Positions 3,743 to 54,114 of a stretch of DNA of 64,000 nucleotides are shown piece by piece (the first letter of the stretch is position 1; each line of letters starts with the position of its first letter). The notes below the pieces were generated by a model that worked only from the letters and a program-made list of their open reading frames with translations, made no database searches and was not told the DNA's origin. This DNA is from an uncultured delta proteobacterium (GTDB taxonomy: Bacteria; Desulfobacterota; Syntrophia; Syntrophales; Fen-1087), in assembly GCA_963743175.1 (NCBI GenBank), contig CAVUOQ010000015.1:8220-72219 (forward strand). Direction: 5' to 3'. Made by a program: the position numbers and the translations under genes.

Positions 3743-3816
3743 GAATATTGCATCACCGCTGAAAAATGGTTCGCATGCGGCGAATCAAGGGTTTTTTGCC
3801 ATTTTTCAAAGGTCTA
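3743..3816 (+). mobile_element. MITE-like element, short copy (both termini present, core deleted)
   Basis: GAATATTGCATCACCGCTGAAAAATGGTTCGCATGCGGCGAATCAAGG ... GCCATTTTTCAAAGGTCTA matches both ends of the 165-bp family. It lies in the adk 5' leader. Confidence 0.7.
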
Positions 3817-3841
3817 AAATATGAAATGGAGGCAATATCAG

Positions 3842-4489
3842 ATGAAAATCATTTTGTTGGGAGCACCCGGGGCAGGGAAGGGCACTGTTGCCAAACTGCT
3901 CACCGAGATGGATGGATCGGTCCAGATTTCCACGGGCGACATTCTGCGCGCCGCGGTCAAGGAAGGGTCTGCGCTGGGCAGGGAAGCGAAGGGTTATATG
4001 GATCGCGGCGATCTTGTTCCGGATGAACTGATCATGAAAATCATGGAAGTCCGCCTGCAGCAGCCGGATTGCCGGAAAGGATTCATTCTGGACGGGTTTC
4101 CACGCACCATTCCCCAGGCCCAAGCCCTGAACAAACTGCTGGAAACACTGAAGATAAAGCTTGATTTTGTCGTCAACCTCGAAGTGCCGACCGATGTCAT
4201 CCTGGATCGCCTGACCACGCGCCGGACCTGCGCCAATCCCGAATGCCAGGAGATTTACAATATCAAGAGCAACCCGCCCACCGCCGACGGAAAATGCAGG
4301 AAATGCGGAACGCCGGTTGTGCAGCGCGACGACGAAACGGAAAGCGCGATTATGAACCGCCTTGATACTTACAACAAAAAGACAGCACCGCTCATCGGCT
4401 TTTACGAGCCGCAGGGTCTTTTGAAAAATTTCCTCTCTCTGAGCAGCAAGGATACAGTTGCACAGATTGGCAAGGCTCTGTCCCGATAA
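3842..4489 (+). CDS. adk: adenylate kinase
   Basis: MKIILLGAPGAGKGT P-loop and a Cys4 lid (CANPEC ... CRKCG). GGAGG lies upstream of ATG 3842. Confidence 0.95.
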   Translation: MKIILLGAPGAGKGTVAKLLTEMDGSVQISTGDILRAAVKEGSALGREAKGYMDRGDLVPDELIMKIMEVRLQQPDCRKGFILDGFPRTIPQAQALNKLLETLKIKLDFVVNLEVPTDVILDRLTTRRTCANPECQEIYNIKSNPPTADGKCRKCGTPVVQRDDETESAIMNRLDTYNKKTAPLIGFYEPQGLLKNFLSLSSKDTVAQIGKALSR

Positions 4490-4493
4490 GTTC

Positions 4494-4661
4494 GAGCACT
4501 TTTGCACAACCGCCGAAAAATGGTTCGCAAGCGGCGAATCAAATGTTTTCCGCCTTTCCAGAGATGACGTTAACGGCATGTCCTGAATCATGACGACGAC
4601 TGGATGTTTTCTTAGCGGAAAAGATTTTTGAACTGCGGCGAAGCCATTTTTCAAAGGTCTC
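4494..4661 (+). mobile_element. MITE-like element, full copy
   Basis: 168 bp. Terminal inverted-repeat blocks are GAAAAATGG/CCATTTTTC, TTCGC/GCGAA and TTTTCCGC/GCGGAAAA. It fills the adk-helicase spacer and ends 5 nt before ATG 4667. Confidence 0.8.
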
Positions 4662-4666
4662 AGGTC

Positions 4667-6634
4667 ATGATTGATTACGACAAGGAACTCAACGAGCAAC
4701 AGCACCGGGTGGTCATGGAGGCGGGGGGACCGCTGCTCGTGATCGCCGGCGCCGGCAGCGGCAAGACCCGGACGCTGACCTTCCGGGTGGCCCGCCTGAT
4801 CGAATCCGGCGTCAGGCCGGAGAAAATCCTGCTTGCGACCTTTACCAACAAGGCTGCCCGGTCGATGCAAGTACGCGTCAACCATCTGATTGCGCAGGAC
4901 ATCGACCGCCTCTGGGGGGGGACGTTTCATCATATCGCCCATCGGATTCTCCGGGCAAATAGCCACCTTCTGGGTTACGAGCGCAATTTTACCATCATGG
5001 ACTCGGAAGACGCCCGGCAGCTCATGAATACCTGCATCTCCGAAGCATCGATCGATCCCGCGGGAGACAAATTCCCCAGAGGGGAGATATTGCGTGATAT
5101 TGCGAGCCTGACGGCGAATACCGAATCTTCCTTGGAACAGATCGTTTTCGGCCGCTATCCCTTTTTCTTTCATCAGATGGAGGGGATCCATTCCGTGATC
5201 TCGGCATATCACCGGCGAAAGAAGGCACTGAATGTCATGGATTTTGACGACCTCCTGCTCAACTGCCAGAGGCTGCTGGTGGAACACCCGGCGGTTTTAC
5301 AGGCTTACGCCGGGCGCTTTGAGCAGATCCTTGTCGATGAATATCAGGATACGAACCTCATCCAGGCGGACATGGTGGACATGCTGGCATCGGTGCATCG
5401 AAACCTGATGGTGGTGGGGGACGATTCGCAAAGCATCTATTCCTTCCGGGGCGCCCATTTTGCCAATATCATAAAATTTCCGGATAAATATCCCGACTGC
5501 AGGATTTTCAAGCTGGAGACCAATTATCGCAGCACACCGGAAATCCTGCACCTGGCCAATCTGAGCATCGTCAACAACGAACAGCAGTATCACAAAGAGC
5601 TGAAAGCGGTGCGAGGCCGGGGGGTGCGTCCTGTCCTGGCGCCGGCGCGCAATGTTCTGCAGCAAGCCGATTTTGTCTGCCAGCGAATTCTCGAACTGAT
5701 GCGGGACGGCGTTGACCTGCACGACATGGCGGTGCTTTACCGGGCGCACTATCATTCCATGGAACTCCAGATGGAAATGACGCGACGCGGGATTCCTTTC
5801 GAGATCCGCTCCGGCATCCGTTTCTTTGAACAGGCCCATATCAAGGATGTAACCTCCTTCATGCGCATCGTCCTGAACCCTTTTGATGAACTGGCCTGGA
5901 GGCGAATCCTCGGGCTTTATCCAAAAGTGGGAAAGGTCACGGCAGAAAAGGTGTGGATGTTCATCAGCAGGCAGGATGAGCCGCTCGCGGCGGTCCTGAC
6001 GGAGTCATTTCCCAAAGCGGCTCCTAAATCGGCACAGCCCGGCCTTCAGAGTTGTCAAGACACTTTTCGGCAAATTCTGGAGGATGCCTCTGCCAGAAAC
6101 AATCCTGCTGAAATGATTGACAAAATTCTGCAAAGCGGCTACCGGGAGTTGCTGCGACAGCGCTTTACAGACAGCGTTTCCCGGTTGGAGGACCTCGATC
6201 AATTCATCCTGTTTGCCGATAAGTTCGGTTCGCTGGAAGAATTTATCAATCAACTGGCCCTGCTGACCAACATGGCCGAGGAAGGCGATGCGGATACGGA
6301 TTCCGGGACGGACAATCGGGTGGTGCTCAGCACAATTCATCAGGCCAAGGGCTTGGAATGGTCCGCTGTCTTTATCATCTGGTGTGCCGAAGGGATGCTG
6401 CCGCTTCAGCGCGCCCTGAAGGAGTTCGATGGAGAAGCGGAGGAAAGGCGTCTGTTTTACGTAGCCGCCACGCGGGCGAAAGACCAGCTCTACCTGTGCT
6501 ATCCCGTCTCTGATTACAGCCGGGGCATGGGTAACCTGCCCCTGAGCCCGTCGCGCTTCATCCGGGAACTCAGCCCGGCTGCCCTCAGAGCGAAAGACCG
6601 CCCCTACGAGCAATGGATGATCGACGAGTATTGA
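4667..6634 (+). CDS. UvrD/PcrA/Rep-family ATP-dependent DNA helicase
   Basis: AGAGSGKT Walker A, VDEYQDTN, TNYRS, IHQAKGLEW and YVAATRAK motifs in the canonical SF1 order. Confidence 0.9.
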   Translation: MIDYDKELNEQQHRVVMEAGGPLLVIAGAGSGKTRTLTFRVARLIESGVRPEKILLATFTNKAARSMQVRVNHLIAQDIDRLWGGTFHHIAHRILRANSHLLGYERNFTIMDSEDARQLMNTCISEASIDPAGDKFPRGEILRDIASLTANTESSLEQIVFGRYPFFFHQMEGIHSVISAYHRRKKALNVMDFDDLLLNCQRLLVEHPAVLQAYAGRFEQILVDEYQDTNLIQADMVDMLASVHRNLMVVGDDSQSIYSFRGAHFANIIKFPDKYPDCRIFKLETNYRSTPEILHLANLSIVNNEQQYHKELKAVRGRGVRPVLAPARNVLQQADFVCQRILELMRDGVDLHDMAVLYRAHYHSMELQMEMTRRGIPFEIRSGIRFFEQAHIKDVTSFMRIVLNPFDELAWRRILGLYPKVGKVTAEKVWMFISRQDEPLAAVLTESFPKAAPKSAQPGLQSCQDTFRQILEDASARNNPAEMIDKILQSGYRELLRQRFTDSVSRLEDLDQFILFADKFGSLEEFINQLALLTNMAEEGDADTDSGTDNRVVLSTIHQAKGLEWSAVFIIWCAEGMLPLQRALKEFDGEAEERRLFYVAATRAKDQLYLCYPVSDYSRGMGNLPLSPSRFIRELSPAALRAKDRPYEQWMIDEY

Positions 6635-6720
6635 CGACTTCGTAAAAAGTCCGGATGCTGTGTTGCGCCGCATCTTTCGTCATTGCGGCGTACGTGCCAG
6701 TACGCCTCATTCCTCGTTCG
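6631..6720. repeat. REP-like hairpin repeat sharing its terminal module with the 1467-1610 repeat
   Basis: TTGACGACTTCGTAAAAAGTCC is the reverse complement of 1587-1610 with 1-2 mismatches. It is followed by hairpins GATGC..GCATC and GGCGTAC-gtgcca-GTACGCC. The helicase stop codon lies inside the module. Confidence 0.65.
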
Positions 6721-6844
6721 GTATATGAGAGCACATGGTGACACGCCATTCCAAAGCAGGGAACCTCCGGTCGCTTTTTACATACCAGTGGCAGCGCTGG
6801 TATGTGTCAGAAATCTTCAATCGCTGGATTGTCAGTGTCAGTCA

Positions 6845-6891
6845 GAAAATAGAAAAGGGGGCAATCGCTGTCAAAAGCGGTACGGCCCCCT
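6845..6891 (-). terminator. intrinsic terminator after the Cache-like gene
   Basis: Stem AGGGGGC (6856-6862) / GCCCCCT (6885-6891), followed on the minus strand by TTTTCTATTTT. Confidence 0.55.
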
Positions 6892-6915
6892 CTACCTATT
6901 TTAATCTTTGAGGAT

Positions 6916-7368
6916 TTATTTATAGAATCCGCAGCCCAGAACCACGCTGCCGACTTTTTCAAGGTATGAGGATTTCTGCTCAACCTTTTTGGTTTTTGGG
7001 CTCATCCATTTGTAGTCGACAGATCCCTTACCTTTTGTCTTACCGATATCTACCATTTCTTTCATAAACAGTTTCCCGTCAGCATCTTTCGTTCCCATCA
7101 TATCTTTCCCGATCAATGCGGCATTTGCACCGTGAGCAATAATTTTTCCGCTCATATCCAAGGCGAAAATGTAAAGATCCTTGCTAACAAAATTTCCTTT
7201 GGGATCATTGAAGGCGGCAAAGGCTTTCGCCTGGCCGTTTGCTTTGTAATAGGCAACGGCTTTACTAAGCAGGGATTTCGCCTCTGCTGCGGTACCCATA
7301 TCCTGAGCATATGCTGAACTTGCAACCAGAAAAAGAATGAATATCCCTACAAAAACTTTCCTCATCAT
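6916..7368 (-). CDS. secreted single-Cache-like domain protein
   Basis: N-terminal signal peptide (FILFLVASSAYA), then a 130-aa domain with the Cache/PDC-like pattern (DLYIFALDMSGKIIAHG ... YKW). Confidence 0.6.
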   Translation of the reverse strand: MMRKVFVGIFILFLVASSAYAQDMGTAAEAKSLLSKAVAYYKANGQAKAFAAFNDPKGNFVSKDLYIFALDMSGKIIAHGANAALIGKDMMGTKDADGKLFMKEMVDIGKTKGKGSVDYKWMSPKTKKVEQKSSYLEKVGSVVLGCGFYK

Positions 7369-7626
7369 ATTCCCCCCTTTTTATTGATCTTGATATGCTG
7401 CTTATTTTGGAATGGTTATTCTTGCATACCTCCCAACTAACTTCTCTATCCGCGACCTGCGACGATCACCTCCTTCCAGAGATTCTATAAGAATCTTACT
7501 ATTGGTTCATGATTATAGGCATAATTCAAATATAAATCAAGTTTTGCAGGGCCATCAGATGTTTCTTACTATAGGATTACCATTTGAGAGGATCTTATTT
7601 CTCGACTTTTTACGAGTGCGTCAGTA

Positions 7627-9015
7627 TCAGGCGCCATCGTCCTTACCGGCTACCCCATCACCTTCCGGCGCGTCAACAAGGGACAGCAAGACCGCAGCCT
7701 CACCGGAGGGAAGCTCCTGCACGTCCTTGAGTTTCCTTCCGACGGCCCTTGACCTCACCTTGGCCTTCTCGATGGTGTCTGACGCCTGATGCAGTTTCTT
7801 CTGGACGGCGTCCAGAAAATCACCATACTTCGTCCACTCGGCTTTTACTGCGGCAAGGAGGTTCCATACCTCGCTGGAACGCTGCTGGATGGCAAGGGTC
7901 CGAAAACCCATCTGGAGGCTGTTCAGAAGCGACCACAGCGTGGTCGGGCCGGCAATCACCACACGGCACTCCCGCTGGATGGCATCGGTCAAACCGGTCC
8001 TGCGGATCACTTCCGCAAAGAGACCCTCTATCGGCAGGAACAGAATGCCGAAGTCCGTCGTCTTCGGCGGGTTCAGGTATTTGCCGCAGATGTCCCCGGC
8101 ACAGGCCTTGACACGGTTCTCCAGCTGTTTTCCCGCCGCGTCAACGCCTTCGCTGTCGGCCCTTTCCTGGGCATCGATCAGGCGTTGATAGTCTTCGACG
8201 GGGAACTTGGCGTCGATCGGGAGCCAGACAGCCTCATCCTCGTCAGCGCCCTGTCCCGGCAATTTGATCGCAAACTCAACGCGCTCGCCGCCATCCTTCG
8301 TGGCCACATTGGCGGCGAACTGATCGGGATGGAGCACCTGTTCCAGCAGCGCCCCGAGCTGCACCTCACCCCACGTCCCGCGCGTCTTGACATTCGTGAG
8401 TACCTTTTTAAGATCGCCGACACCCGTGGCAAGCGTTTGCATCTCCCCAAGCCCCCTGTGCACAAGTTCCAGACGTTCGCTGACTTGCCTGAAGGATTCG
8501 CCCAGGCGCTTTTCCAGTGTTCCCTGAAGTTTCTCGTCCACGGTCTGACGCATCTGTTCAAGCTGCCTGGCGTTGTCGAGTTGCATGCTCTGGAGTTTAT
8601 CTTCCACCGTGGCCCTGAGAGCCTCCAGTTTCTTCTCGTTTGAGTCCGAAAGCTTCCCGATTGCGTTTGACAGGGCTTCAAGCTGGGTTTTCTGAAGGTT
8701 TGCCAACTCGCCCATTGTCCTGGCCATCGTTTCGGAGATGCTCTTGAGAGTCGTCACGACTTCTTCGCGCAGTTGTTTGGCGCCCGTGGCAAGTTCCTGC
8801 CGCTGTTCTCTTGCCGTCTTGCCCGTTTCGTCCCGGCTTAAGGCCAATTCTTCTCTGAGTGCATGCGCGATACGTTCCTGTGTTTTTTCAAAAGCATCCA
8901 GACGGGAAGCAGGCAGAGCGGCATCGGCTTGAAATGAATTCCGTAAGACGACGACAAGCAGAACCGCCACGGCTACAAGCAGGGCGAGGATCACAAACAG
9001 CAAAATATTCGTCAT
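7627..9015 (-). CDS. rmuC: DNA recombination protein RmuC
   Basis: N-terminal TM helix, long coiled-coil and C-terminal RmuC nuclease-like domain (WGEVQL ... LPIDAKFP ... FLPIEGLF). ATG 9015 is preceded by AGGGAGGGG. Confidence 0.85.
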   Translation of the reverse strand: MTNILLFVILALLVAVAVLLVVVLRNSFQADAALPASRLDAFEKTQERIAHALREELALSRDETGKTAREQRQELATGAKQLREEVVTTLKSISETMARTMGELANLQKTQLEALSNAIGKLSDSNEKKLEALRATVEDKLQSMQLDNARQLEQMRQTVDEKLQGTLEKRLGESFRQVSERLELVHRGLGEMQTLATGVGDLKKVLTNVKTRGTWGEVQLGALLEQVLHPDQFAANVATKDGGERVEFAIKLPGQGADEDEAVWLPIDAKFPVEDYQRLIDAQERADSEGVDAAGKQLENRVKACAGDICGKYLNPPKTTDFGILFLPIEGLFAEVIRRTGLTDAIQRECRVVIAGPTTLWSLLNSLQMGFRTLAIQQRSSEVWNLLAAVKAEWTKYGDFLDAVQKKLHQASDTIEKAKVRSRAVGRKLKDVQELPSGEAAVLLSLVDAPEGDGVAGKDDGA

Positions 9016-9244
9016 GAATAACCCCTCCCTTGTCTTCGAAAGAATGTTATTGCTCCTGCCATCAAGCAGATAAAATGTCATACCGGGCTTGATCCGGCAT
9101 CCAGCCCCGTACTGGAAACCCGCTTTCGCGGGAAAGACAACTTAGGCCTATTCTATTGCGGGACTAATAACGTATTTCAGGAAAATAAAAAAGAAAAAAG
9201 GCGTGATGCGGCTTAAGCATGATTGCTGATGAATCATGGTCTGG

Positions 9245-9408
9245 GAGCTTTGCATAACCGGTGAAAAATGGTTCGCAAGCGGTGAATTAAAGATTTTTCG
9301 ACTTTCCAGAAATTAGATTAATTTATTGATTTCAATCATATTTAAGCTTTATCATCTCTTTAGCGAAAAAGATTTTGAGCCGCGGCGAAGCCATTTTTCA
9401 AAGGTCTC
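9245..9408 (+). mobile_element. MITE-like element, full copy (AT-rich core variant)
   Basis: 164 bp with the same termini as 4494-4661. It is flanked by the direct repeat GGTCTGG (9238-9244 and 9409-9415). Confidence 0.8.
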
Positions 9409-9425
9409 GGTCTGGAAGTCGAGCA

Positions 9426-10127
9426 TTAAATGGTGCTGCTGATCTGGTCGTCATATTCCCTGACTTTCTTCACATAGTACCGGTGGTTCTTCTTGAGTCC
9501 TCCCTTGAGCGATTCACCGCCCGCATAATAGGCGGCCAGGATGTGATCCCAGAGGATCGTTTCCTCGTATCCCCGTTTCGTGTACTGATCCCTGAGGTCG
9601 CTCAGAAGGGCAGCGGAAACCATGATGTTCAAGGCAGGTTCAAAGGCGTGCATTCTGGTGACGTCAAGGTTGAGTATTTTTGTGTAGGCATCCCATGTCA
9701 AGGGGTGAATCTGCATGATTCCCATGGCGTTGACCGGTGAGCGCGCGTTGACATTGAAATTACTTTCCTTTTTCATGATCGCCAGAAACAGGGAAACCGG
9801 GATGTCGTGTCTTTTCGATTCCTTGATAACGGTCGTGGCGATCGTCATGGCATCCCCCCGTTTGAGATCCGTTTGACTGAGGACCTTCATGATACGCTTC
9901 TTCTGCCAATAGTTTCCATGTTCTTTCAGAAATTCCGATGCCGACACCAAATCCTGCAGTCGATGCTTGGCGGAAACGAGTATTGGAGAGCCGATAATCA
10001 GGAAAGCGATAAAGAAGGTTAACAGCAGGACGGCCGATTGTTTTCTCTTTGATGTGTCCTGTTCCCATTTCAAAATAAATGACATTCTTCTTGCCTCCCA
10101 TGGCCAAAGATTCATCGCAAAACTCAT
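9426..10127 (-). CDS. lytic transglycosylase (SLT-domain) protein with an N-terminal membrane anchor
   Basis: SLT motifs AIMKKESNF, AMGIMQI and AAYYAGG. The start is uncertain (10127 or 10085). Confidence 0.8.
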   Translation of the reverse strand: MSFAMNLWPWEARRMSFILKWEQDTSKRKQSAVLLLTFFIAFLIIGSPILVSAKHRLQDLVSASEFLKEHGNYWQKKRIMKVLSQTDLKRGDAMTIATTVIKESKRHDIPVSLFLAIMKKESNFNVNARSPVNAMGIMQIHPLTWDAYTKILNLDVTRMHAFEPALNIMVSAALLSDLRDQYTKRGYEETILWDHILAAYYAGGESLKGGLKKNHRYYVKKVREYDDQISSTI

Positions 10128-10678
10128 GTATCCTGGCCTGTAAAGTTAGATAAATATTTAATAATCCTTCCAATTCGTCATTATCTGCGTTGAATAGTCT
10201 GACCCGGAATTTTCTTGATGAGAATTCTTACCGGGAAAAAAGAAAAACGGGTCGGGCAAGAAAGAAGACGCGCGAAATGGAGAAAATCACAGGGTGAAAA
10301 GAAAAAGCCAGCTAATGCAACGCAACGATCAAATTTTTTGAAGCGGTGTTTCTTTATCCTCCAGAAAACGTCAGGGTAAATTCTCTACATAATGCCCCGG
10401 GCCGTATGATCACAACAAATCGCAACCAGCCGGGTTGAATGCGGCGCTGATCAAACAAGGGCAACGCTTGCCGGACCCCTCGTTCAGTCCTTCACCGATT
10501 TCATTAATTCGATACTTTAACCATCCTATGAAGCATTTAGCGTGTGTTATTTAACCCATAAAAACGGGTTCGTCAAGTAAAATATGGCATATAATCGTCC
10601 AAGGGGCTAAAATAATTGCGATTTAAGATGGGTTCCGGCGCGATTTTGGGCTTTCAGTGTGCGGTCATCTCACCCCTA

Positions 10679-12577: not shown

Positions 12578-12602
12578 TTTTTCTGCTCCATTTTTTAATA
12601 AT

Positions 12603-22185: not shown

Positions 22186-22189
22186 TTTC

Positions 22190-27376: not shown

Positions 27377-27387
27377 TCAACAAACTG

Positions 27388-27482
27388 ACGGAATTCGACG
27401 GCTTCGTTAAAAGTCCTTTTTCCCCTCTCCTGGCGGGAGGGGACGAAGGGGAGGGGGAGGGAATTCTTGACTTTTTACAGGG
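27388..27482. repeat. GC-rich hairpin (REP-like) repeat with both terminal modules
   Basis: GACGGCTTCGTTAAAAGTCC ... TCCCCTCTCC-tggc-GGGAGGGGA ... GGAATTCTTGACTTTTTACAGG, located in the livH-livM spacer. Confidence 0.7.
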
Positions 27483-27500
27483 GCGACAAAGGGTGAATAA

Positions 27501-28577
27501 ATGAAGATCAAAAAGTGGCAATTCCACCCGTGCGGCAATTACCGCGAACACTACGCACAGGAATTGAGTATCTTTGAGACGGATTTTGGCCGGCTCTGGC
27601 TGGGTATCGGGATTATGGCGCTCTTTGGGATCGTTCCCTGGGTCTTCAGCCCCTACATGATCTATGTGTTCAATACGATCGGGATTGCTGCGATTGCCGT
27701 GATCGGGCTGAACATCCTGATCGGCTTTACCGGGCAGATTTCCCTCGGGCACGGCGCCTTTTTCGGTGTGGGCGCCTACGCAGCGGCTATTCTCGCAACA
27801 ACCCTGGATTTCCCGTTTTATCTATCCATTCCGGCCGCCGCCGTCATCACGGCCATGGTCGGCATGGTTTTCGGCACGCCCTCGGTGCGGCTCAAGGGAC
27901 TCTATCTGACCATTGCCACACTGGCGGGTCAGTTCATCATTGAATACATCCTGCTGCGTTGGGAAAGTCTGACCAAGGGGACCATGGGAATGATCCTGCC
28001 GAAGCCCTCTATTTTAGGGTGGGAATTGAGCGGCGACCGGGTTTTCTTTTTTATGATCTTTGCCTGCCTTATCCTGATGGCCTGGATCGCGGTGAACCTG
28101 ATCCGTACGAAATACGGCAGGGCCTTCATCGCCATCCGTGACAATGACCGGGCGGCCGAAGGCATGGGCATTCCGATCTTTCGATACAAGCTTCTGGCCT
28201 TTGGCATCAGTTCATTCTATGCCGGCTTTGCAGGCGCCCTCTATGCCTATTACAGCGTCAGCATCACCACGGAACCCTTCACCCTGAGCCTTTCCGTGGA
28301 GTATATCGCCATGGTGATCATCGGCGGCATGGGCAACATCACCGGATCTATCTTCGGCGCCATTTTCATCACCGGACTCAATGAGATACTGCGCTGGCTC
28401 ACGGAACTGCTCATGAACATGGGGGTCGTCAGCGGTTCCGGCCTGAATATGGCGCCACTGCGCGAATTTACTTTCGGCCTGGCGATTGTGCTGTTCATTA
28501 TTTTCGAACCAAGGGGTTTGGCGGAGGTCTGGCGGATTGTGCGTTCGAGTTTCCGGCTATGGCCGTTTTCATATTGA
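27501..28577 (+). CDS. branched-chain-type ABC transporter permease (LivM-like)
   Basis: Polytopic 358-aa protein with the LivM-family core (GQISLGHGAFFGVGAY). Confidence 0.88.
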   Translation: MKIKKWQFHPCGNYREHYAQELSIFETDFGRLWLGIGIMALFGIVPWVFSPYMIYVFNTIGIAAIAVIGLNILIGFTGQISLGHGAFFGVGAYAAAILATTLDFPFYLSIPAAAVITAMVGMVFGTPSVRLKGLYLTIATLAGQFIIEYILLRWESLTKGTMGMILPKPSILGWELSGDRVFFFMIFACLILMAWIAVNLIRTKYGRAFIAIRDNDRAAEGMGIPIFRYKLLAFGISSFYAGFAGALYAYYSVSITTEPFTLSLSVEYIAMVIIGGMGNITGSIFGAIFITGLNEILRWLTELLMNMGVVSGSGLNMAPLREFTFGLAIVLFIIFEPRGLAEVWRIVRSSFRLWPFSY

Positions 28578-28744
28578 GAGACTTTTGAAAAATGGTTCGC
28601 AAGCGGCGAATCAAATGTTTTCCGCCTTTCCAGTAATGACGTTAACGGTTTGTAATATATCATGATAACGCCTGGTTATCTTCTTAGCGGAAAAGATTTT
28701 TGAGCCGCGGCGAAGCCATTTTTCAGAGGTTATGCAAAGCTCTC
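28578..28744. mobile_element. MITE-like element, full copy with its core inverted relative to its outer termini
   Basis: 167 bp flanked by the direct repeat ATTGA (28573-28577 and 28745-28749). The first repeat contains the livM-like stop codon. The outer ends are in reverse orientation and the core is in forward orientation compared with the other copies. Confidence 0.8.
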
Positions 28745-41928: not shown

Positions 41929-42141
41929 ATGAAGCGTTGTAAACTCTGCACCACCGGCAGTCTTTTCGCCTTCTGCCAGGGGTGTGGCATCCCCGTGTGT
42001 AAAAACTGCTGTCGCATGGAAATCGAAGGTTTTGGCTGTGTCTCTGCCTGGCCCGTTTATTATTGCCTGAATTGTGCCGCAAAGCGATCATCTCCTCCCC
42101 TTCATCCCCTCCCGCCAGGGGAGAGGAAAAGGGACTTTTAA
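41929..42141 (+). CDS. hypothetical Cys-rich small protein (zinc-ribbon-like); its C-terminal tail is encoded by a REP-like repeat
   Basis: Five CxxC pairs (CKLC, CQGC, CKNCC, CLNC). No homolog recognised. Confidence 0.3.
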   Translation: MKRCKLCTTGSLFAFCQGCGIPVCKNCCRMEIEGFGCVSAWPVYYCLNCAAKRSSPPLHPLPPGERKRDF

Positions 42142-42155
42142 CGAGTTCATGAAAT
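42091..42155. repeat. GC-rich hairpin (REP-like) repeat
   Basis: TCCCCTCCC-gcca-GGGGAGAGGA followed by the module GGGACTTTTAACGAGTTCATG. Confidence 0.7.
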
Positions 42156-42218
42156 TCGAATGACTTTTTCTCTGTTCCGATTCTTACCGCCGGTATGCTA
42201 TTTTCCCATCCAATTTAT

Positions 42219-45310: not shown

Positions 45311-45327
45311 TTCTATCAGGAGTTCTA

Positions 45328-45984: not shown

Positions 45985-46007
45985 AGGGGATGATGTAAGG
46001 AGAGGGT

Positions 46008-47813
46008 ATGTCGGTTCTAATGTCTGGAAATGAAGCAATTGCCCGGGGGGCTTATGAATGCGGCGTGCGTTTCGGGGCAGGCTATCCGGGAACGCCCAGT
46101 ACGGAAATTCTCGAGGAATTCGCTCAATACCCTGGCGTCTACGCCGAGTGGGCGCCTAATGAAAAGGTGGCCCTGGAGGTCGGCATCGGCGCGGCCGTCG
46201 CCGGCGCGAAGGTTCTGGTGACTATGAAGCATGTGGGCGTAAACGTCGCCGCGGATCCGCTCTTTACAGTCAGTTATACGGGAACCAGCGGGGCACTCGT
46301 GATCATTTCGGCGGACGATCCTTCCCTGCACAGCTCCCAGAATGAGCAGGACAACCGCAACTACGCAAAATTCGCAAAAATTCCGATGCTGGAGCCGGCC
46401 GACTCCCAGGAGGCAAAGGATTTCATCAAGCTGGCTTTCGAAATTAGTGAAAAATTCGATACCCCCGTCTTCGTCCGGCCGAACACACGCGTGGCCCACT
46501 CAAAATCGGTGGTGACCCTCAGCGAACCGGAAGCGCCGGAAGATAAAACGGACATTCGCATCAACGCGGCAAAATACGTCATGGTGCCGATCAATGCCCG
46601 GGCCCGGCGCGTGGAAGTGGAAAAACGAATGCAGCAATTGCGCGAATTTGCTGAAACATTTCCTGAAAACCACATGGAGATCAACAGTCCGGATGTCGGA
46701 ATCATCACGGCGGGCATTCCCTATCATTACGCAAAAGATGTTTTCCCGGATTATTCCTATCTGAAGCTTGGCATGGTGCATCCGCTGCCGACAAAGATGA
46801 TCCGGGCGTTCGCCGCACGCGTGAAGAAAATCTATTGCGTCGAAGAGCTGGACCCCTTTATTGAGGAACAGGTGCGGGCCATGGGGATCGACGTCACGGG
46901 CAAGGAGATTTTCCCATATACTCAGGAATTTGATCCCGGCGTTGTTGAAAGGGCCATAAAAGGCAGTATCGAGAGGCCGGTTGATCTCCCGGTCCTTGCG
47001 ATTCCCCCGCGGCCGCCCAATCTCTGCCCGGGATGCCCGCACCGTGGTCTCTTTTACGTGCTTGGCAAGCTGAAGGCCTTTGTCACAGGGGATATCGGCT
47101 GTTACACCCTGTCCTACATGAAACCGCTCGAAGGCCTTCATTCCTGCATCTGCATGGGGGCCAGCATCGGCATGGCCCACGGGATGAGCAAGGCCCTGAA
47201 GGAAAAAGGAAAAGGGAAGGTCGTCGGCGTCATCGGGGACTCCACTTTCATCCATTCGGGGATCACCCCGCTGTTGAACCTGGTCTACAATAAGGGCGAG
47301 GCGGTGATTGTGATTGCCGATAACCGCACGACGGCCATGACCGGGATGCAGGAGCACCCGGCCACGGGATTCACACTGCAGGGCGAACAGACCAAAGCAC
47401 TTGATTTTACGGTCCTGGCGGCCGCACTGGGGGTGGAAAACGTCCGCGTTATCGATCCGTACGATCTGAAAATGACGAGAAGCGTCATGAAGGAGGAGCT
47501 GGCAAGGCCCGGACCATCGGTTGTGATCTCCAACCGGCCCTGTGTTCTTTTCAAGCGCTTTCAGACCGAACCGGTGAAGCCGCTCAGGATCGATCCGAAA
47601 AAGTGCATCGGCTGCAAAATGTGCCTCGGGTTGGGTTGCCCGCCCATTTCCTGGAAGAAGTTCGCCGATATGCCGGAAGCTCAGATCATCAGGAATGCCA
47701 AGAAACAGGATGGCCATTCCTTTATTGATCAGAATCTCTGCAACGGCTGTACGGTCTGCCGGCAGCTCTGCAAAGTGGGCGCCATCGGGGAGGAGGGTCC
47801 AGTTGATGAATAA
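46008..47813 (+). CDS. iorA: indolepyruvate:ferredoxin oxidoreductase alpha subunit (second, full-length copy)
   Basis: MSGNEAIARGAYECGV N-terminus, TPP-binding GDIGCYTL / GDSTFIHS, and C-terminal Cys clusters CIGCKMCLGLGCP and CNGCTVCRQLC. Confidence 0.9.
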   Translation: MSVLMSGNEAIARGAYECGVRFGAGYPGTPSTEILEEFAQYPGVYAEWAPNEKVALEVGIGAAVAGAKVLVTMKHVGVNVAADPLFTVSYTGTSGALVIISADDPSLHSSQNEQDNRNYAKFAKIPMLEPADSQEAKDFIKLAFEISEKFDTPVFVRPNTRVAHSKSVVTLSEPEAPEDKTDIRINAAKYVMVPINARARRVEVEKRMQQLREFAETFPENHMEINSPDVGIITAGIPYHYAKDVFPDYSYLKLGMVHPLPTKMIRAFAARVKKIYCVEELDPFIEEQVRAMGIDVTGKEIFPYTQEFDPGVVERAIKGSIERPVDLPVLAIPPRPPNLCPGCPHRGLFYVLGKLKAFVTGDIGCYTLSYMKPLEGLHSCICMGASIGMAHGMSKALKEKGKGKVVGVIGDSTFIHSGITPLLNLVYNKGEAVIVIADNRTTAMTGMQEHPATGFTLQGEQTKALDFTVLAAALGVENVRVIDPYDLKMTRSVMKEELARPGPSVVISNRPCVLFKRFQTEPVKPLRIDPKKCIGCKMCLGLGCPPISWKKFADMPEAQIIRNAKKQDGHSFIDQNLCNGCTVCRQLCKVGAIGEEGPVDE

Positions 47814-48384
47814 TCCCGTGAAAAGTATCTTACTGGCCGGCGTCGGCGGCCAGGGCATTCTGCGGGCGAGCGACATTCTCTGCCTGGCATTCATGGCCAC
47901 GGGTCTGGATGTGAAGAAAAGCGAGGTGCATGGAATGGCTCAGCGGGGCGGCTGCGTGACGAGCCACGTCCGCTACGGGTCGAGGGTTTACTCCCCCATC
48001 GCCAAAAAAGGGGACGTGGATATCCTCCTTTCTTTTGAAAAGCTGGAAACCTTGCGTTATCTTGATTACCTGAAGGCGGATGCTGTCGTGATCATCAATG
48101 AAGAAGAAATCTACCCGCCGTCGGTGAATCTCGGCGAATCCATGTATCCGAATAATATTGTTGAGCATATATCTAAATATTTCAGAAGCGTCAACTGCGT
48201 CGACGCCCTCAGGATCGCGCGCAGGGCAGGGAACGTCAGGACGGTCAATACCGCGCTTCTGGGCGCCCTGTCCAACAATCTGAAGATTACGGACGACGTC
48301 TGGAACCGGGTCTTGCAGGAATCTTTCCCGGAAAAGGCGCTGAAGGCCAATCTGCAGGCCTTCAACCTCGGTAAATCGTCTTGA
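47806..48384 (+). CDS. iorB: indolepyruvate:ferredoxin oxidoreductase beta subunit (second copy)
   Basis: GVGGQGILRASDIL motif. ATG 47806 overlaps the iorA end. Confidence 0.88.
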   Translation: MNNPVKSILLAGVGGQGILRASDILCLAFMATGLDVKKSEVHGMAQRGGCVTSHVRYGSRVYSPIAKKGDVDILLSFEKLETLRYLDYLKADAVVIINEEEIYPPSVNLGESMYPNNIVEHISKYFRSVNCVDALRIARRAGNVRTVNTALLGALSNNLKITDDVWNRVLQESFPEKALKANLQAFNLGKSS

Positions 48385-48419
48385 AACCTGTTTTTAATGG
48401 TGAATAGGGAAGGGGGGTT

Positions 48420-49349
48420 ATGGCTGACGATTATTACAAAACCCTGGGGATTGATAAAAACGCCTCGGAAGACGATATCAAAAAGGCCTACCGAAAGCTG
48501 GCCATGAAATTTCATCCGGACCGGAATCCGGGGAACAAGCAGGCCGAAGAGAAATTCAAAAAACTCAGCGAGGCCTACGCCGTTTTGAGCGATCAGGAAA
48601 AGCGTAAGCAATACGACAGTTTCGGCTCCGACGCCTTCCGGCAGCGCTACAGCCAGGAAGACATCTTCAAAGACTTCGATTTAAATGATATTCTTAAGGA
48701 ATTTGGTTTTGGCGGCGGTGGTCGGACCCGGACCTTTACCTTCGGCCGTGGCAGCGGCGGTAGCGGCGGTGATCCCTTTGCCGATCTCTTCGGCGGCGGT
48801 CAGGGTTACTCCCGTCAGATGCCGCAAAAAGGGCAGGATTATGAATATAACATCTCAATAACACTGGAAGAATCTGTTTTCGGCGCTGAAAAGAAACTGT
48901 CGCTGCAAAAGGAAGACCGTATTGAAGAAATCAACATCAAAGTTCCCCCCGGGATCAGCAACGGAAAAAAACTGCGCCTGGCCGGGAAGGGATCACCCGG
49001 CTATAACCGGGGGTTGTCGGGCGATCTTTATCTGAACATCACCATCCTGCCACATCCGATCTTTGCCCGTGACGGCATCGATATTTACGTGGAAAAATCC
49101 GTGAATTATTCCCAGGCCGCACTGGGAACGACGATCGAAGTTCCCACCATCGAAGGTACAACCAAAAGAATAAAAATTCCCGCCGGTACGCAGAATTACA
49201 CCAAGATCAGAATGAAAGGTTATGGCGTGCCGAACTTGAAAGACGGCGGCAAGGGCGATCAGTACGTGAAAATTTCCGTCAACGTTCCGAAGAAGCTCAC
49301 GGATCGTCAGGCCCAGCTTATCAAAAAGCTGGCTGAGGAGGGTCTGTAA
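48420..49349 (+). CDS. DnaJ-family co-chaperone without a zinc finger (CbpA-like)
   Basis: J domain (DYYKTLGI ... HPDRNP), G/F-rich linker and C-terminal substrate-binding domains. No CxxCxGxG repeats. Confidence 0.85.
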
Positions 49350-49444
49350 CGGGCCATGCCGTCAAACATAATTGTCGCATAAGATATGTTATGTAAACTT
49401 ATTTGTATTTTTAAAGGCAAAACTCCACATTTAATATAATCATA

Positions 49445-49533
49445 GAGATATTTGCATAACCGCCAAAATCTAGTTGTCCTCTTAGCGGAAAAGATTTTTG
49501 AGACGCGGGCGTTTTCCATTTTACAAAGGTCTC
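49445..49533 (+). mobile_element. MITE-like element, truncated copy (left arm deleted)
   Basis: GAGATATTTGCATAACCGCC is joined directly to ...CTCTTAGCGGAAAAGATTTTTGAGACGCGGGCG..CCATTTTACAAAGGTCTC. Confidence 0.7.
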
Positions 49534-49546
49534 GCTTCTGATTGTT

Positions 49547-50266
49547 TCAGATGAGTTCAAGATTTCCCCATGCGCCCAATTCTTTTCCGATAATAATCAC
49601 TATGCCGAGCACATCCCTGATTTGAGAACCGAAGGCCAGCGCTTTCTTGATATCCTTTAGCGTTTTCACCCGGTTTCCAATGGCCGTCGCCGCGGCGTCG
49701 GCGAGAGCCACGGACCGTGACTTTACGCAGACGGCGTCTGCCCTGCCAAAACTCAGCGATGGTCCAACCGTGGCCGATGAGGTACAGACACCACTGGGAG
49801 TCTCCTCCGGGCGGATCCTGATGGCCAGTTTATGACTAAAGGGAGACTCTCCGGCAAAGATGCCGATTTTTACTTCCTCATTACATTTCAGGAAGATATC
49901 TCCTCCATTTTCAACAATAACATTAGGGGTAAGCCTCAGGAGATCCTGGCCGACATGCTGGGCCATGGCGCCGGCCACGGCAGCCATCGGCCCGACACCG
50001 GCCAACTGGGCAGCGTTGAGCATGTCCCGGACAATATCCGGCGCCAGATCGTTATTCTTAAGAGGATTCAGTGCGCCTAAAAAATCCGGATGGCTGGCAA
50101 TATAGGCTTCCAGATGGGCCCGATGGCGATGCACGGACTGAAGTGCGGCCTGTTTTAATTCGATGTCGGAGCTGATGAATAGATCTGTTTCACGGACAGT
50201 TACCTGGTATGATTGCAGGTTGTTCTTTAAGATATGGTGACGATAGGTTCTTTCCAGATATTGCAT
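49547..50266 (-). CDS. UPF0280 (ApbE-like superfamily) protein
   Basis: ETDLFISSD ... VGPMAAVAGAMAQ ... VENGGDIFL pattern. Start taken at MQYLERTYR (50266), because the longer ORF start lies inside the MITE terminus. Confidence 0.7.
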   Translation of the reverse strand: MQYLERTYRHHILKNNLQSYQVTVRETDLFISSDIELKQAALQSVHRHRAHLEAYIASHPDFLGALNPLKNNDLAPDIVRDMLNAAQLAGVGPMAAVAGAMAQHVGQDLLRLTPNVIVENGGDIFLKCNEEVKIGIFAGESPFSHKLAIRIRPEETPSGVCTSSATVGPSLSFGRADAVCVKSRSVALADAAATAIGNRVKTLKDIKKALAFGSQIRDVLGIVIIIGKELGAWGNLELI

Positions 50267-50288
50267 AAAGAAAAGATTCCCCTGGTGA

Positions 50289-50453
50289 GAGCTTTGCATA
50301 ACCGCTGAAAAATGGTTCGCAAGCGGCGAATCAAATGTTTTCCGCCTTTCCAGAGATTAGATTAACGGCTCCTCATGAATCATGATTACGTCTGGTTGTT
50401 CTCTTAGCGGAAAAAATTTTTGAGTCGCGGCGAAGCCATTTTTCAAAGGTCTC
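50289..50453 (+). mobile_element. MITE-like element, full copy
   Basis: 165 bp. TGGTG occurs on both sides (50283-50287 and 50455-59). The element abuts the dnaE stop region. Confidence 0.8.
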
Positions 50454-50459
50454 GTGGTG

Positions 50460-53400
50460 TCATCTGAATTGGGTCGCGCCGGCGCCAAGAATTCTGTCAG
50501 CTTCCTCTTTGAGCTGGTCGGAGGGTGCAAACAAGACATTTTTTCCCAGATGAATCACCGTTTCAGACTGATCATCGAGCAGGTGAATATACCCCTCCGC
50601 CTTGCCTGGATACTTTTTCAATACATTCCGGAGCGACTCGAGGTCATGATCCGCCAGTCGCGTCGTATTAAAACGGAAGCTGGCTGTTTGAAAAGGATGA
50701 TCCATGGCCTCGGAAAGCGGCAGGGCCTCTGTCGCAATCACCTTGATGCTGTCTTCGCCCACATCAACAACGCCTTTGATCAGGACCGGTTCCTCGCCGT
50801 GCAGCAGAACATAGGCCTTTCGATAAACGTCCGCAAAGAAAATCACCGTGATCGACCCTTTCAGATCTTCAAAGGTCACATAGGCCATCAGATCTTTTTT
50901 CTTGGTTGTCACCTCACGGATATTGCTGACCACACCGACAAACCGGACCTCCTCCTTGTCTTTTTTCTCAAGGATTGCCTCGGTATCGGTATTGGCGACC
51001 ATCGCCAGCCGCTCTGTAAACCTGGAAAGCGGATGGCCTGTAATATAGAAACCAAGCATTTCTTTTTCATGGGCAAGCAGCTCCCCGGATTCCCACTCCG
51101 GAATATTGTGCAGGATGGCATTTTCCAAGTGATCCGGATCAGCGCTCTCTTTCTTTTCAAGCTGATCAAAAATGCTGGACTGGCCGCTGCTCTTTTCCCG
51201 ATGACGGCGTTGCGCCAGTTCCATGATTTCTTCATAGGAGGACATCAATGGCCGCCTCTTATAACCCATGGCATCAAAAGCGCCGCACTTGATGAGGCTT
51301 TCGATGACCCTTTTGTTCACCTTCCGGAGGTCCACCTGCTCGCAGAAATGATTAAAAGAACGAAATTTCCCAAGACGGTCCCGGGCCTCGATAATGGTGT
51401 CTATGGCCCCGACCCCCACATTTTTGACCGCGGAAAGACCAAAGCGGATCTGGTCTCCGGAAACGCTGAAATCTCTGTGAGATTCGTTAATATCGGGTGG
51501 CAGGACAAATATTCCCATGTCCTTGCAGGCCGCAATATGCTTGATGATTTTATCTCGATTGTCTTTTTCGCTGGTCAGCAGGGCGGCCATGAATTCCGCC
51601 GGATAGTGCGCCTTCAGGTAGGCTGTCTGGTAGGAGATCATGGCATAGGCCGTACTGTGCGACTTGTTAAAGCCGTACTGTGCGAACGTCTCCATCCTGT
51701 CCCAGATTTTTCTGGCTTTTTGCTCGGCTATTTTTCTTATTTTTGCCCCTGAGAGAAACTTCGGTTTCTCTTTTTCCATCTCCTCGGCTTTTTTCTTGCT
51801 CATGACCTTCCGGAGCGTATCGGCCTCGGCCATCGTATAATTGCCGATGGCGCCGGCAATCTGCATGACCTGCTCCTGATAAACGATAACCCCGTAGGTT
51901 TCCTTCAAAATGGCTTCCAGTTCGGGCAGTTCGTAGACGATTTTGGTCTTGCCCTGCTTGCGCGAAATAAACTCCGGAACCATATTCATCGGTCCCGGAC
52001 GGTAAAGGGCGATCAGAGCGATCACATCCTCAATGCAATCGGGTCTCATGCTGACCAGAATATCCTTCATGCCCGGGCTTTCCAGCTGAAAAACACCGTC
52101 CGTATCGCCGCGCATGAGCAGTTGATAGGTTTTTTCGTCGTCCAGGGGCAGCGATTCCATATCAATCTCTTCCCCCCTGCCTTCATTGATAAATCGAAGG
52201 GCATTCTTGATCACCGTCAGCGTTTTCAGGCCCAGAAAATCAAATTTGGTCAGGCCGATGGTCTCAATATCTTTCATGGCGAATTGCGTGACAATGTCGT
52301 CCTTCGGTGCGCACAGGGGAACCCTTTCGACCAGGGGCATATCGGAAATAACGACGCCGGCGGCATGCGTGGAGGCGTGACGGTTCAAGCCTTCCAGCGC
52401 CCGGGATAGGGAAAGCAGCTTCCTGACCTTTGGATTGTTTTTCCCCTCTTCCTGCAGGCGGGGTTCCATTTTCAGGGCGTCATCCAGCGTAATATTCAGG
52501 ACATTCGGCACCATCTTGGCAATGGCGTCCACCTCTCCATAGGGCATGTTGAGCGCCCGGCCTACGTCCCGGATGACCGCCCTGGCCTGCATCTTGCCAA
52601 AGGTGATGATCTGGGAAACCCTGTCTTTTCCGTATTTTTCCGTTACATAGCGGATGATTTCATCGCGCCCTTCCTGGCAGAAATCGATATCGATGTCCGG
52701 CATGCTGATCCGGTCCGGATTCAGGAAACGCTCAAAAAACAGTCCGTAACGGATCGGGTCGATGCTGGTAATGCCGAGGGCGTAGGCCACGAGACTTCCG
52801 GCCGCGGAGCCCCGTCCGGGGCCGACAGGAATATGACTTTGTTTTGCGTAATGAACAAAGTCGGAAACAATGAGAAAGTATCCGGCAAACCCCATGGATT
52901 TGATCATATCCAGCTCTTCCCGCAGACGTTTTTCGTATTTTTCCCAAGGCGATCCGTTCTGCTTACCTTTGAGAATCTGGGGCATCAGCCCGCGGAGGCC
53001 TGTTTCGGCCTTGTCTTTCAGAACATCATCGAGGTTTTCATCGGGAGATATTTCGAAATGCGGGAGGAAAAAATGACCGAATTCCAGTGTCAGGTTACAT
53101 CTTTCCGCAATCCTGACCGTATTTTCGATGGCTTCCGGACATTTCTGAAACAGACGTCTCATGTCTTCCGGTGAGCGAAGATAGAACTGATCCGTGCCGA
53201 ACCGCATCCGGTCCTTATCTTCGATGGTCTTGCCGGTTTGGATGCAAAGCAGCACCTCGTGCGCCTCTGAATCCTCCCGGTTGATATAATGGCAGTCATT
53301 TGTGGCCACCAGGGGGATGGAAAGTTCGCGGCTTAATTCAATCAGTCCCTCATTGACAACGGTTTGTTCCGGCAGACCATTTTCCATTATTTCCAGAAAA

Positions 53401-53921
53401 AAATTCTCCGGCCCAAAGATTGCCTGATATTCTCTGGCCGCCTGCCGGGCCCCATCCCTGTTGCCCCGGAGCAAAAAGTCGGCAATTTCTCCATGGAGGC
53501 AGGCGCTCAGGCCGATCAGGCCTTCATGGTGGTCTTTGAGGATCTCCTTATCGATCCGGGGTTTATAATAAAATCCCTCGAGGTAGCCTGCCGTGGTCAG
53601 CTTCATGAGGTTTTTATACCCCTGCATGTTTTTCACAAGCACCAGCAGATGCCTGGCCGATTCACCGGCATGATGGCTGTTTTTCTCGAAACGGCTCTTC
53701 GGCGCGACGTAAAGCTCACAGCCGATAATGGGCTTGATTCCGTGCTTATATGCCCGCTGATAAAAACCGATCGCCCCGAACATATTGCCATGATCGGTCA
53801 TCGCAATGGCCGGCATCTGGTATTCCTTGGCCTTGTTCAGCAGATCATCAATACGGATGGTGCCGTCCAGAAGGCTGTACTGGGTATGGACGTGCAGGTG
53901 AACAAAATCGGCATGTTTCAT
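50460..53921 (-). CDS. dnaE: DNA polymerase III alpha subunit
   Basis: PHP domain (FVHLHVHTQYSLLDG) and polymerase core (GPGRGSAAGS, FLNPDRISMPDIDIDF), 1153 aa. Confidence 0.97.
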   Translation of the reverse strand: MKHADFVHLHVHTQYSLLDGTIRIDDLLNKAKEYQMPAIAMTDHGNMFGAIGFYQRAYKHGIKPIIGCELYVAPKSRFEKNSHHAGESARHLLVLVKNMQGYKNLMKLTTAGYLEGFYYKPRIDKEILKDHHEGLIGLSACLHGEIADFLLRGNRDGARQAAREYQAIFGPENFFLEIMENGLPEQTVVNEGLIELSRELSIPLVATNDCHYINREDSEAHEVLLCIQTGKTIEDKDRMRFGTDQFYLRSPEDMRRLFQKCPEAIENTVRIAERCNLTLEFGHFFLPHFEISPDENLDDVLKDKAETGLRGLMPQILKGKQNGSPWEKYEKRLREELDMIKSMGFAGYFLIVSDFVHYAKQSHIPVGPGRGSAAGSLVAYALGITSIDPIRYGLFFERFLNPDRISMPDIDIDFCQEGRDEIIRYVTEKYGKDRVSQIITFGKMQARAVIRDVGRALNMPYGEVDAIAKMVPNVLNITLDDALKMEPRLQEEGKNNPKVRKLLSLSRALEGLNRHASTHAAGVVISDMPLVERVPLCAPKDDIVTQFAMKDIETIGLTKFDFLGLKTLTVIKNALRFINEGRGEEIDMESLPLDDEKTYQLLMRGDTDGVFQLESPGMKDILVSMRPDCIEDVIALIALYRPGPMNMVPEFISRKQGKTKIVYELPELEAILKETYGVIVYQEQVMQIAGAIGNYTMAEADTLRKVMSKKKAEEMEKEKPKFLSGAKIRKIAEQKARKIWDRMETFAQYGFNKSHSTAYAMISYQTAYLKAHYPAEFMAALLTSEKDNRDKIIKHIAACKDMGIFVLPPDINESHRDFSVSGDQIRFGLSAVKNVGVGAIDTIIEARDRLGKFRSFNHFCEQVDLRKVNKRVIESLIKCGAFDAMGYKRRPLMSSYEEIMELAQRRHREKSSGQSSIFDQLEKKESADPDHLENAILHNIPEWESGELLAHEKEMLGFYITGHPLSRFTERLAMVANTDTEAILEKKDKEEVRFVGVVSNIREVTTKKKDLMAYVTFEDLKGSITVIFFADVYRKAYVLLHGEEPVLIKGVVDVGEDSIKVIATEALPLSEAMDHPFQTASFRFNTTRLADHDLESLRNVLKKYPGKAEGYIHLLDDQSETVIHLGKNVLFAPSDQLKEEADRILGAGATQFR

Positions 53922-53948
53922 GGGGCTGCTCTAAATTTTCGTCAAACC

Positions 53949-54114
53949 GAGATCTTTGAAAAATGGCTTCGCCGCGGCTCAAAATCTTTTTCGCTGAAAA
54001 TATGAGAATGCTTAAATATGTTTGAAATTAATAAATTAGTCTAATTGCTGGAAAGTCGAAAAATCTTTGATTCACCGCTTGCGAACCATTTTTCACCGGT
54101 TATGCAGAGTTCTC
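53949..54114 (-). mobile_element. MITE-like element, full copy in reverse orientation (same AT-rich core variant as 9245-9408)
   Basis: Reverse complement of the 9245-9408 copy with few differences. Lies between the dnaE start and the guaB stop. Confidence 0.8.

Follow-up and report, generated by a model that had tools for sequence, protein, structure and literature searches.

A MITE family with IS5-family-type ends and a 5-bp target-site duplication, dispersed through genomes of uncultured Syntrophales

Abundant intergenic MITEs (miniature inverted-repeat transposable elements) of 100–170 bp, such as Correia in Neisseria and ERIC/IRU in enterobacteria, are co-transcribed, form long hairpins and can affect the processing or stability of mRNA. 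Other bacterial MITEs carry the terminal motif GAGACCTTTGCA(AAA), namely ATR of Neisseria, a proposed derivative of the IS5-family insertion sequence ISNme1 (terminal repeat GAGACCTTTGCAAAA), and BrickBuilt and MITEPgRS of Porphyromonas gingivalis, which are linked to ISPg1, ISPg4 and ISPg9 and have repeats similar to that of ISPg1 and ISPg9 (GAGACCATTGCA; PMC4596501, including its Table 2). These elements are small, non-coding and intergenic, have an AT-rich centre and presumably depend for their movement on an IS5-family DDE transposase acting in trans. Here we describe a MITE family with the same terminal motif and the same general features in a 64,000-nt stretch of DNA from an uncultured member of the Syntrophales (contig CAVUOQ010000015.1; hereafter the window, to which all coordinates without a locus number refer). 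Its interior is dissimilar to those of ATR and BrickBuilt/MITEPgRS and its host belongs to another phylum. BrickBuilt and ATR reach ~19 copies per genome, whereas the Syntrophales MITE is present at roughly one copy per 9–20 kb; its target-site duplication is a clean 5 bp where that of BrickBuilt is irregular, and its arms, unlike those of ATR and BrickBuilt, are conserved over ~60 nt, far past the 12-nt terminal repeat. The element thus belongs to a known kind, defined by IS5-family-type ends and a 5-bp duplication, and is not a new kind of system. A literature search for MITEs in Syntrophus found none and, as far as the literature shows, the family is previously undescribed.

The initial annotation of this DNA had listed seven copies of one repeat, and all seven are present essentially where it had placed them, as five full copies (164–168 nt, ~166 nt) and two internally deleted ones (Table 1). 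A repeat finder independently recovers them as the direct families D1–D4 and the inverted pair I1 (9242-9414 with 53943-54115, 91% complementary), and there are 11 occurrences of the arm motif GAAAAATGG(C)TTCGC in the window, where shuffled sequences lead one to expect 0.00. Boundaries were fixed from the family-wide register of the duplication, from the first base of GAGAGC to the last base of GGTCTC or GCTCTC. This leaves four of the original assignments unchanged (4494-4661, 28578-28744, 49445-49533 and 53949-54114) and shifts the starts of the other three to 3741, 9243 and 50287; across the window and related loci, full copies measure 161–169 nt. Copy 3741, originally described as termini only, in fact retains the left arm as far as about position 60, joined there to the final ~17 nt of the right arm. 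The two centre variants that had been distinguished are confirmed, with variant A in copies 4494, 28578 and 50287 and variant B in copies 9243 and 53949, and so is the proposal that the whole unit can fold into one long hairpin: full copies are predicted to do so at -56.5 kcal/mol (z = -4.3) and -44.2 kcal/mol (z = -2.9), with z = -5.5 for a third fold.

Table 1. Repeat elements in the window and in other loci (L numbers), with their flanking 5-nt sequences and, for window copies, the joint seen in related strains that lack the element.
Feature	Position	Strand	Size	Flanking 5 nt (left/right)	Context and remarks	Joint in allele without element
Deleted copy	3741-3816	+	76 nt	AAAAT/AAAAT at 3736-3740 and 3816-3820, if the element ends at 3815	25 nt upstream of adk start codon; nhmmer 3743-3803, E = 1.6e-12	3732->3826, less exact
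Full copy, variant A	4494-4661	+		AGTTC/AGGTC	Occupies adk-uvrD intergenic space; orthologous copies in L059 and L073; nhmmer E = 1.8e-52	4471->4665, less exact; single AGGTC
Full copy, variant B	9243-9408	+		GGTCT/GGTCT at 9238-9242 and 9409-9413	Intergenic, downstream of both rmuC and SLT-domain transglycosylase gene; orthologous copy in L073; nhmmer E = 3.3e-49	9210->9423, less exact
Full copy, variant A	28578-28744	+		ATTGA/ATTGA	Long-type end on right; between genes for branched-chain amino-acid permease and its ABC ATPase	28572->28745, precise; 172 nt skipped, 5 letters common to both sides
Deleted copy	49445-49533	+	89 nt	TCATA/GCTTC (no duplication)	Left-end outer 20 nt plus right arm; nhmmer E = 1.8e-9	
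Full copy, variant A	50287-50453	+		CTGGT/GTGGT	Downstream of dnaE; best nhmmer match, E = 4e-54	50282->50455, precise; 172 nt skipped, 5 letters common to both sides
Full copy, variant B	53949-54114	-		AAACC/AAAGC	Between guaB stop and dnaE start	53947->54119; 171 nt skipped; two metagenome runs
Insertion sequence	L105 1189-2508		1,320 bp	AAAAT/AAAAT	Same contig as L104	
MITE with L105-type ends	L104 8045-8205		161 bp	AAATC/AAATC	Same contig as L105	
Insertion sequence	L106 1393-2688			GTCTC/GTCTC	Ends GAGACCTTTGCA	
Insertion sequence	L114 547-1833			No duplication	Ends GAGACCTTTGCATAAC and GAGACCTTTGCACATGGAAATGAAAAAAAGG	
Element	L115			No duplication	Ends GAAACCTTTGCA and GAGACCTTTGCA	
Elements with the same outer 16 nt	L033 2789-2921; L008 4843-5189; L008 6515-7529; L079 1944-1959				Motif at both ends in L033	
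Nested hairpin repeat sites	L091 1568-1759; L023 4365-4553; L043 1812-2000; L020 2514-2701; L038 7190-7375; L071 3094-3276; L079 1756-1938					
Second intergenic repeat family	1461-1494; 1544-1609; 27391-27484; 42088-42157				Repeat-finder families D5, D10; pairs I3, I4, I13	

The repeat family is a true MITE, an identity that follows from a 5-bp target-site duplication, empty sites, intergenic dispersal and the lack of a conserved open reading frame (ORF), of an Rfam match and of covariation, taken together. An nhmmer profile gave 125 non-overlapping matches in the window and related loci, which pairing of the ends resolved into 93 elements from the window and ~9 Syntrophales species represented by metagenome-assembled genomes (MAGs). 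Seventy of these are full-length, 12 short (~60–90 nt) and 11 long; nine of the long ones contain a nested GGGGACA...TGTCCCC hairpin repeat and the other two are pairing artefacts or unrelated elements. The 5-nt flanks are identical in 30 of the 93 elements, compared with 0.67 expected from permuted flanks, and agree at four or more of the five positions in 43 (3.3 expected). Duplication lengths of 3, 4, 6, 7 and 8 nt gave 0–5 perfect cases, i.e. background, and a shift of the register by 1–3 nt reduced the matches at four or more positions from 43 to 1–6. The duplicated pentamers are AT-rich and show no consensus. Direct repeats of 5–7 bp flanking some of the window copies had been taken at the outset as consistent with target-site duplication; that interpretation stands and now extends to additional copies, the length being uniformly 5 bp and copy 49445 having no duplication at all.

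Related strains were found to carry alleles without the element at the position of each of the six window copies examined (3741, 4494, 9243, 28578, 50287 and 53949), and comparison between MAG species also revealed clean empty orthologous sites with a single pentamer (for example GATTT in L032, against the filled site at L075 6357-6443). Nearly all copies (91/93) are intergenic, with a median distance of 27 nt past the upstream stop codon and 40 nt ahead of the downstream start codon. Within co-directional gene pairs the two orientations are represented 29 and 24 times, i.e. without bias, and no type of intergenic region is enriched. Every reading frame is open in at most eight of 45 copies, so that no conserved ORF is present among them; a scan of the whole window against Rfam at gathering thresholds gave no match; and RNAalifold on 45 copies returned a covariation term of -0.19, with any double change in only 3 of 22 pairs. 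The MITE-like character proposed in the initial annotation is therefore borne out by the terminal inverted repeats, the duplication, the empty sites, the dispersal and the absence of an ORF, and the known RNA family that it had considered as an alternative finds no counterpart in either the Rfam scan or the covariation analysis.

The range of the family was assessed by searching a 20-nt left-arm pattern against GTDB representatives, one genome per species. More than 91 matching stretches were obtained and, among the matches listed, nearly all come from ~9 MAGs labelled Syntrophales, Syntrophaceae, 'Syntrophus' or Deltaproteobacteria. This spread over many loci and species means that the family is not a local duplication, and agrees with the early impression of a highly amplified family. 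The density is one copy per 9 kb in the window, and in the related loci, not counting the copy that seeded each of them, it is one per ~21 kb. Subfamilies, which are partly genome-specific, are set apart by the AT-rich centre; many nearly identical copies in one 'Syntrophus sp.' MAG indicate recent bursts. The organism of the window is found in groundwater and sediment metagenomes, and in two metagenome runs (groundwater or unlabelled) 414 and 600 contigs, respectively, match the element. Compared with a plasmid database, the left arm gave a single chance match of 19 nt. In two metagenome runs (X1 and X3), word depth over 50287-50453 is about twofold higher in the left arm than in the right arm and ~20–30-fold higher than in the centre, and contigs from the same runs contain joints that go back by 165–166 nt, giving head-to-tail dimers of the element.

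The termini provide the link to a known transposase family. The consensus ends GAGAGCTTTGCATAACCG and GAGACCTTTGAAAAATGG align without gaps and agree at 13 of 18 positions by direct comparison, i.e. as imperfect terminal inverted repeats, and are 70–99% conserved over 55 copies. What had been read as 10 extra nucleotides at the left end is more plausibly ordinary divergence between these two IS5-type repeats, and copy 28578 carries the block (GCATAACC...) at its right end instead of its left. The outer 12–16 nt of the element read GAGA(G/C)CTTTGCATAAC. Further in, the arms (subterminal sequence GAAAAATGGTTCGCAAGCGG...) show a longer complementarity that is offset by 11 nt and is a feature of this MITE, and they are more than 90% conserved over ~60 nt across subfamilies and species. 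Other small elements in the same MAGs have only the outer 16 nt in common with the MITE while their interiors are unrelated, and several MITE families appear to use one transposase. One of these non-autonomous elements is ~1 kb long, non-coding, AT-rich and full of CCCNGTTAAAT hairpins.

A scan of viral and proviral contigs with the 16-mer identified two loci on one contig, L104 and L105. The insertion sequence in L105 has the ends GAGAGCTTTGCATAACTCGG... (GAGAGCTTTGCATAAC...) and GAGAGCTTTGCACATGCTATGAAAAAAGG..., and the long end of the MITE matches its end at 16 of 16 positions and at 23 of 30 (77%) over a longer stretch that includes TGAAAAA.GG. Its transposase contains DUF772 and DDE_Tnp_1 domains and has as its best NCBIfam match NF033581, 'IS5 family transposase', with a score that lies below the model cut-off because the protein is split. 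The split gives two overlapping ORFs (1353-2307 of L105, minus strand) and follows closely on the catalytic-domain motif VDA; it could be due to programmed frameshifting, to an error in sequencing or to a frameshift that has made the gene a pseudogene. Homologous transposases of ~350 aa are named 'IS5 family' at source, and three elements that encode them were examined (L106, L114 and L115 in Table 1). The long end of the MITE matches the L114 end at 15 of 16 positions, and its short end matches the ISNme1 repeat at 14 of 15. NF033581-type insertion sequences (L105, L106, L114; ISPg1/IS1126) have ends identical to those of the MITE over 12–16 nt and, in L105 and L106, a 5-bp duplication, and differ in being autonomous, with a length of ~1.3 kb and a transposase of ~350 aa where the Syntrophales MITE has no ORF. 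On sequence comparison, the MITE termini are the terminal repeat of an IS5-family clade (DUF772 plus DDE_Tnp_1, NCBIfam NF033581); the initial annotation, in contrast, had recognised no described insertion sequence or MITE (compare PMC4596501 and L105, L106 and L114).

We therefore favour, at a probability of about 85%, a MITE with the ends of this IS5-family clade that is moved in trans by a transposase of the clade and that was amplified, and is now decaying, in Syntrophales. Several observations weigh against this. The initial annotation had found no cognate transposase in the window, and this holds for the NF033581 clade throughout the window and 610 kb of related Syntrophales loci; an all-against-all comparison of 509 ORFs from the loci revealed no multi-copy protein. 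Partnerless arms in L054 and L082 were considered as ends of an autonomous element and rejected, as the adjoining genes are housekeeping genes and include no transposase. A scan of metagenomes for the long end joined to a non-MITE interior gave three matches, all of them extra-short forms of the MITE, and metagenome contigs aligned to the element in search of an internal loose end of a parent contained only subfamily variants and short forms among the clusters listed. The autonomous relatives seem to belong to other lineages: a homologue carries the label Bacteroidales and an element is from biogas-fermenter metagenomes, and the cluster names of the transposase homologues give only 'Bacteroidales' and 'bacterium'. 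These relatives share just the outer 12–30 nt with the MITE, compared with >90% conservation over ~60 nt among MITE arms. IS5-group elements are, moreover, usually quoted with 4-bp duplications (ISfinder); the 5-bp duplication of the clade rests on three elements (L105, the L104 MITE and L106), and of five elements examined, autonomous or derived, L114 and L115 lack a duplication.

According to this IS5-based model, a transposase of the clade supplied in trans would bind both ends of the MITE and cut the target with a 5-nt stagger, inserting preferentially into AT-rich intergenic DNA, and repair of the stagger would generate the 5-bp duplication. Amplification to roughly one copy per 9–20 kb in several uncultured groundwater or sediment Syntrophales species would have been followed by the formation of genome-specific subfamilies, and copies would then shrink in place to ~60-nt forms when the stretch between the GCGGCGAA direct repeats in the two arms is deleted. 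Once inserted, the element would be transcribed with the neighbouring genes and the RNA could form a long hairpin; that such a hairpin affects gene expression is a conjecture. We infer both which transposase moves the element and that the element still moves. Correia and ERIC/IRU would be functional analogues in this respect, an analogy that also draws on the discussion in PMC4133298, but their terminal repeats are unrelated to those of the Syntrophales MITE and Correia duplicates TA.

Two other modes of mobility, or of origin, were weighed against transposition by an IS5-family enzyme. An intergenic, palindromic, high-copy repeat that folds well might be a REP/REPIN palindrome moved by RAYT (an IS200/IS605-like tyrosine transposase) or a set of genes for structured non-coding RNAs. 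To our knowledge REPINs leave no target-site duplication, and the exact 5-bp duplication and precise empty sites observed here refute such readings, to which we assign a negligible probability; the termini match the ends of DDE-type IS5 elements, the ORFs of the loci include no multi-copy protein, and the copies match no Rfam family, show no covariation and lie in both orientations relative to genes. Derivation from Tn3 is also very improbable, though somewhat less so. A Tn3-family transposase recognises a ~38-bp terminal repeat, beginning with GGGG and ending with TAAG, and makes a 5-bp duplication. In register with a Tn501/Tn21-type repeat the long end of the MITE matches at 20 of 38 positions, a value within the 15–21 of 38 seen among bona fide Tn3-family repeats themselves (p = 5e-4 from shuffles, rising to 1.4e-3 for the best of three; all repeat sequences used were confirmed to exist in plasmids), but this comparison was chosen post hoc, after the resemblance had been noticed. 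The short end matches at only 8–12 of 38 positions, the terminal GGGG and inner TAAG hallmarks are absent, and the IS5-family ends fit far better, with 16 of 16 terminal nucleotides and an equal duplication length. Tn3-derived elements known as TIMEs are likewise hairpin-forming MITEs with a 5-bp duplication and AT-rich targets, features typical of the Tn3 family (PMC4133298), but they have 38-bp Tn3-type repeats and are typically single- or low-copy and mostly plasmid-borne, whereas hundreds of chromosomal copies with IS5-type ends are found here.

A different question is whether the copies, however they arrived, are now kept by selection, i.e. whether a former MITE has been domesticated by its hosts as a terminator acting in both directions, a hairpin that stabilises mRNA or a site for protein binding. 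One observation comes from the adk-uvrD copy, which is orthologous between the window (4494-4661) and L059 (6117-6283), with derived variants such as TTTTGCACAAC in common. The two copies are 96.4% identical (161/167), compared with 75.7% (595/786) at third codon positions in the adk and uvrD genes on either side (Fisher p = 2e-11). This is due either to purifying selection on the element or to homogenisation by gene conversion, which among hundreds of similar copies would give an equal result. The arm conservation across subfamilies and species points in the same direction, as does a small G+C-rich hairpin in the left arm between an A-run and a T-run, which is terminator-like on both strands (consensus scan, a pattern match only). 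In four metatranscriptomes, contigs carry family members that continue into flanking sequence, which fits co-transcription, with DNA carry-over also possible. On the other hand, copy 28578 lies inside a probable transporter operon, which argues against strong termination; the copies show frequent presence/absence polymorphism and internal decay, and the lack of orientation bias, of enrichment by intergenic-region type and of covariation also counts against a host function. We keep domestication as a minority reading, and an unlikely one, because just one clean orthologous pair is available at a useful divergence. The broader notion that the family is not purely selfish, its orthologous copies diverging no faster than non-synonymous sites and its arms, conserved well past the 12–30 nt common to the autonomous IS5 relatives, serving a host function, or that very efficient gene conversion homogenises the copies in genomes perhaps without a transposase, is possible if doubtful. 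A sigma-54 or sigma-70 promoter in the left end was considered separately and rejected, since TTGCAT occurs without a consistently spaced GG (by eye) and scans gave weak consensus matches only.

The decay predicted by the IS5-based model can be followed at orthologous sites. Comparison of the pairs L020/L004, L057/L028 and L011/L037 shows that short forms were derived in place from full copies through loss of the sequence between the GCGGCGAA repeats of the arms, and the idea that the ~60-nt forms are an independently mobile subfamily was rejected as at least three of them arose in this way. The same short intergenic regions have also been targeted independently, within 10 nt of one another and in either orientation. 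The resulting series from 166 to ~87 to ~60 nt, together with the 5-bp footprint and the filled and empty alleles, makes the family usable as a strain-level marker and could help to define the end sequences needed by an IS5-family transposase. More generally, the family gives a name and boundaries to perhaps hundreds of unannotated intergenic repeats per genome in the Syntrophales, which are syntrophic and common in groundwater and sediment, and whose short-read assemblies these repeats break (400–600 contigs per metagenome run contain or end in the element). The GAGACCTTTGCA-type partnership of IS5-family elements and MITEs, known in Neisseria and Porphyromonas, now reaches a third phylum, where the copy number is far higher, and the unexpectedly slow divergence of an orthologous copy sets domestication against gene conversion as a question for this lineage.

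The genes that flank the window copies are ordinary housekeeping genes, namely adk, dnaE, guaB, rmuC and those for a UvrD-type helicase, an SLT-domain transglycosylase, the branched-chain amino-acid permease, its ABC ATPase and a DnaJ-domain protein. The permease gene (27501-28577) has its TGA stop codon within the left ATTGA copy (28573-28577), placing this insertion exactly at the end of the gene. Two MITE copies in inverted orientation (50287-54114) enclose the essential gene dnaE (50460-53921, minus strand), giving the appearance of a composite transposon; in other strains an empty allele exists for each flank separately, and the two copies are hence independent insertions. The 1,153-aa ORF between them was considered as a candidate transposase and rejected, as it is DnaE.

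Two further repeats were noted. The nested hairpin repeat GGGGACAYGAC...GTCRTGTCCCC interrupts at least nine MITE copies in related MAGs, either in the centre or in the left arm, and has the look of a third family of small mobile or REP-like repeats; the window has no clear copy of it, and in L059 (~5380-5420) such a hairpin stands upstream of adk, where the window has copy 3741-3816. The second intergenic family of the window consists of a CCCCTCCC...GGGGAGGGG palindrome followed by TTGACTTTTTA. At one of its copies (~27378-27487), related strains have ~30 unrelated nucleotides instead (joints 27377->27488 and 27381->27492), indicating insertion/deletion polymorphism in this family too.

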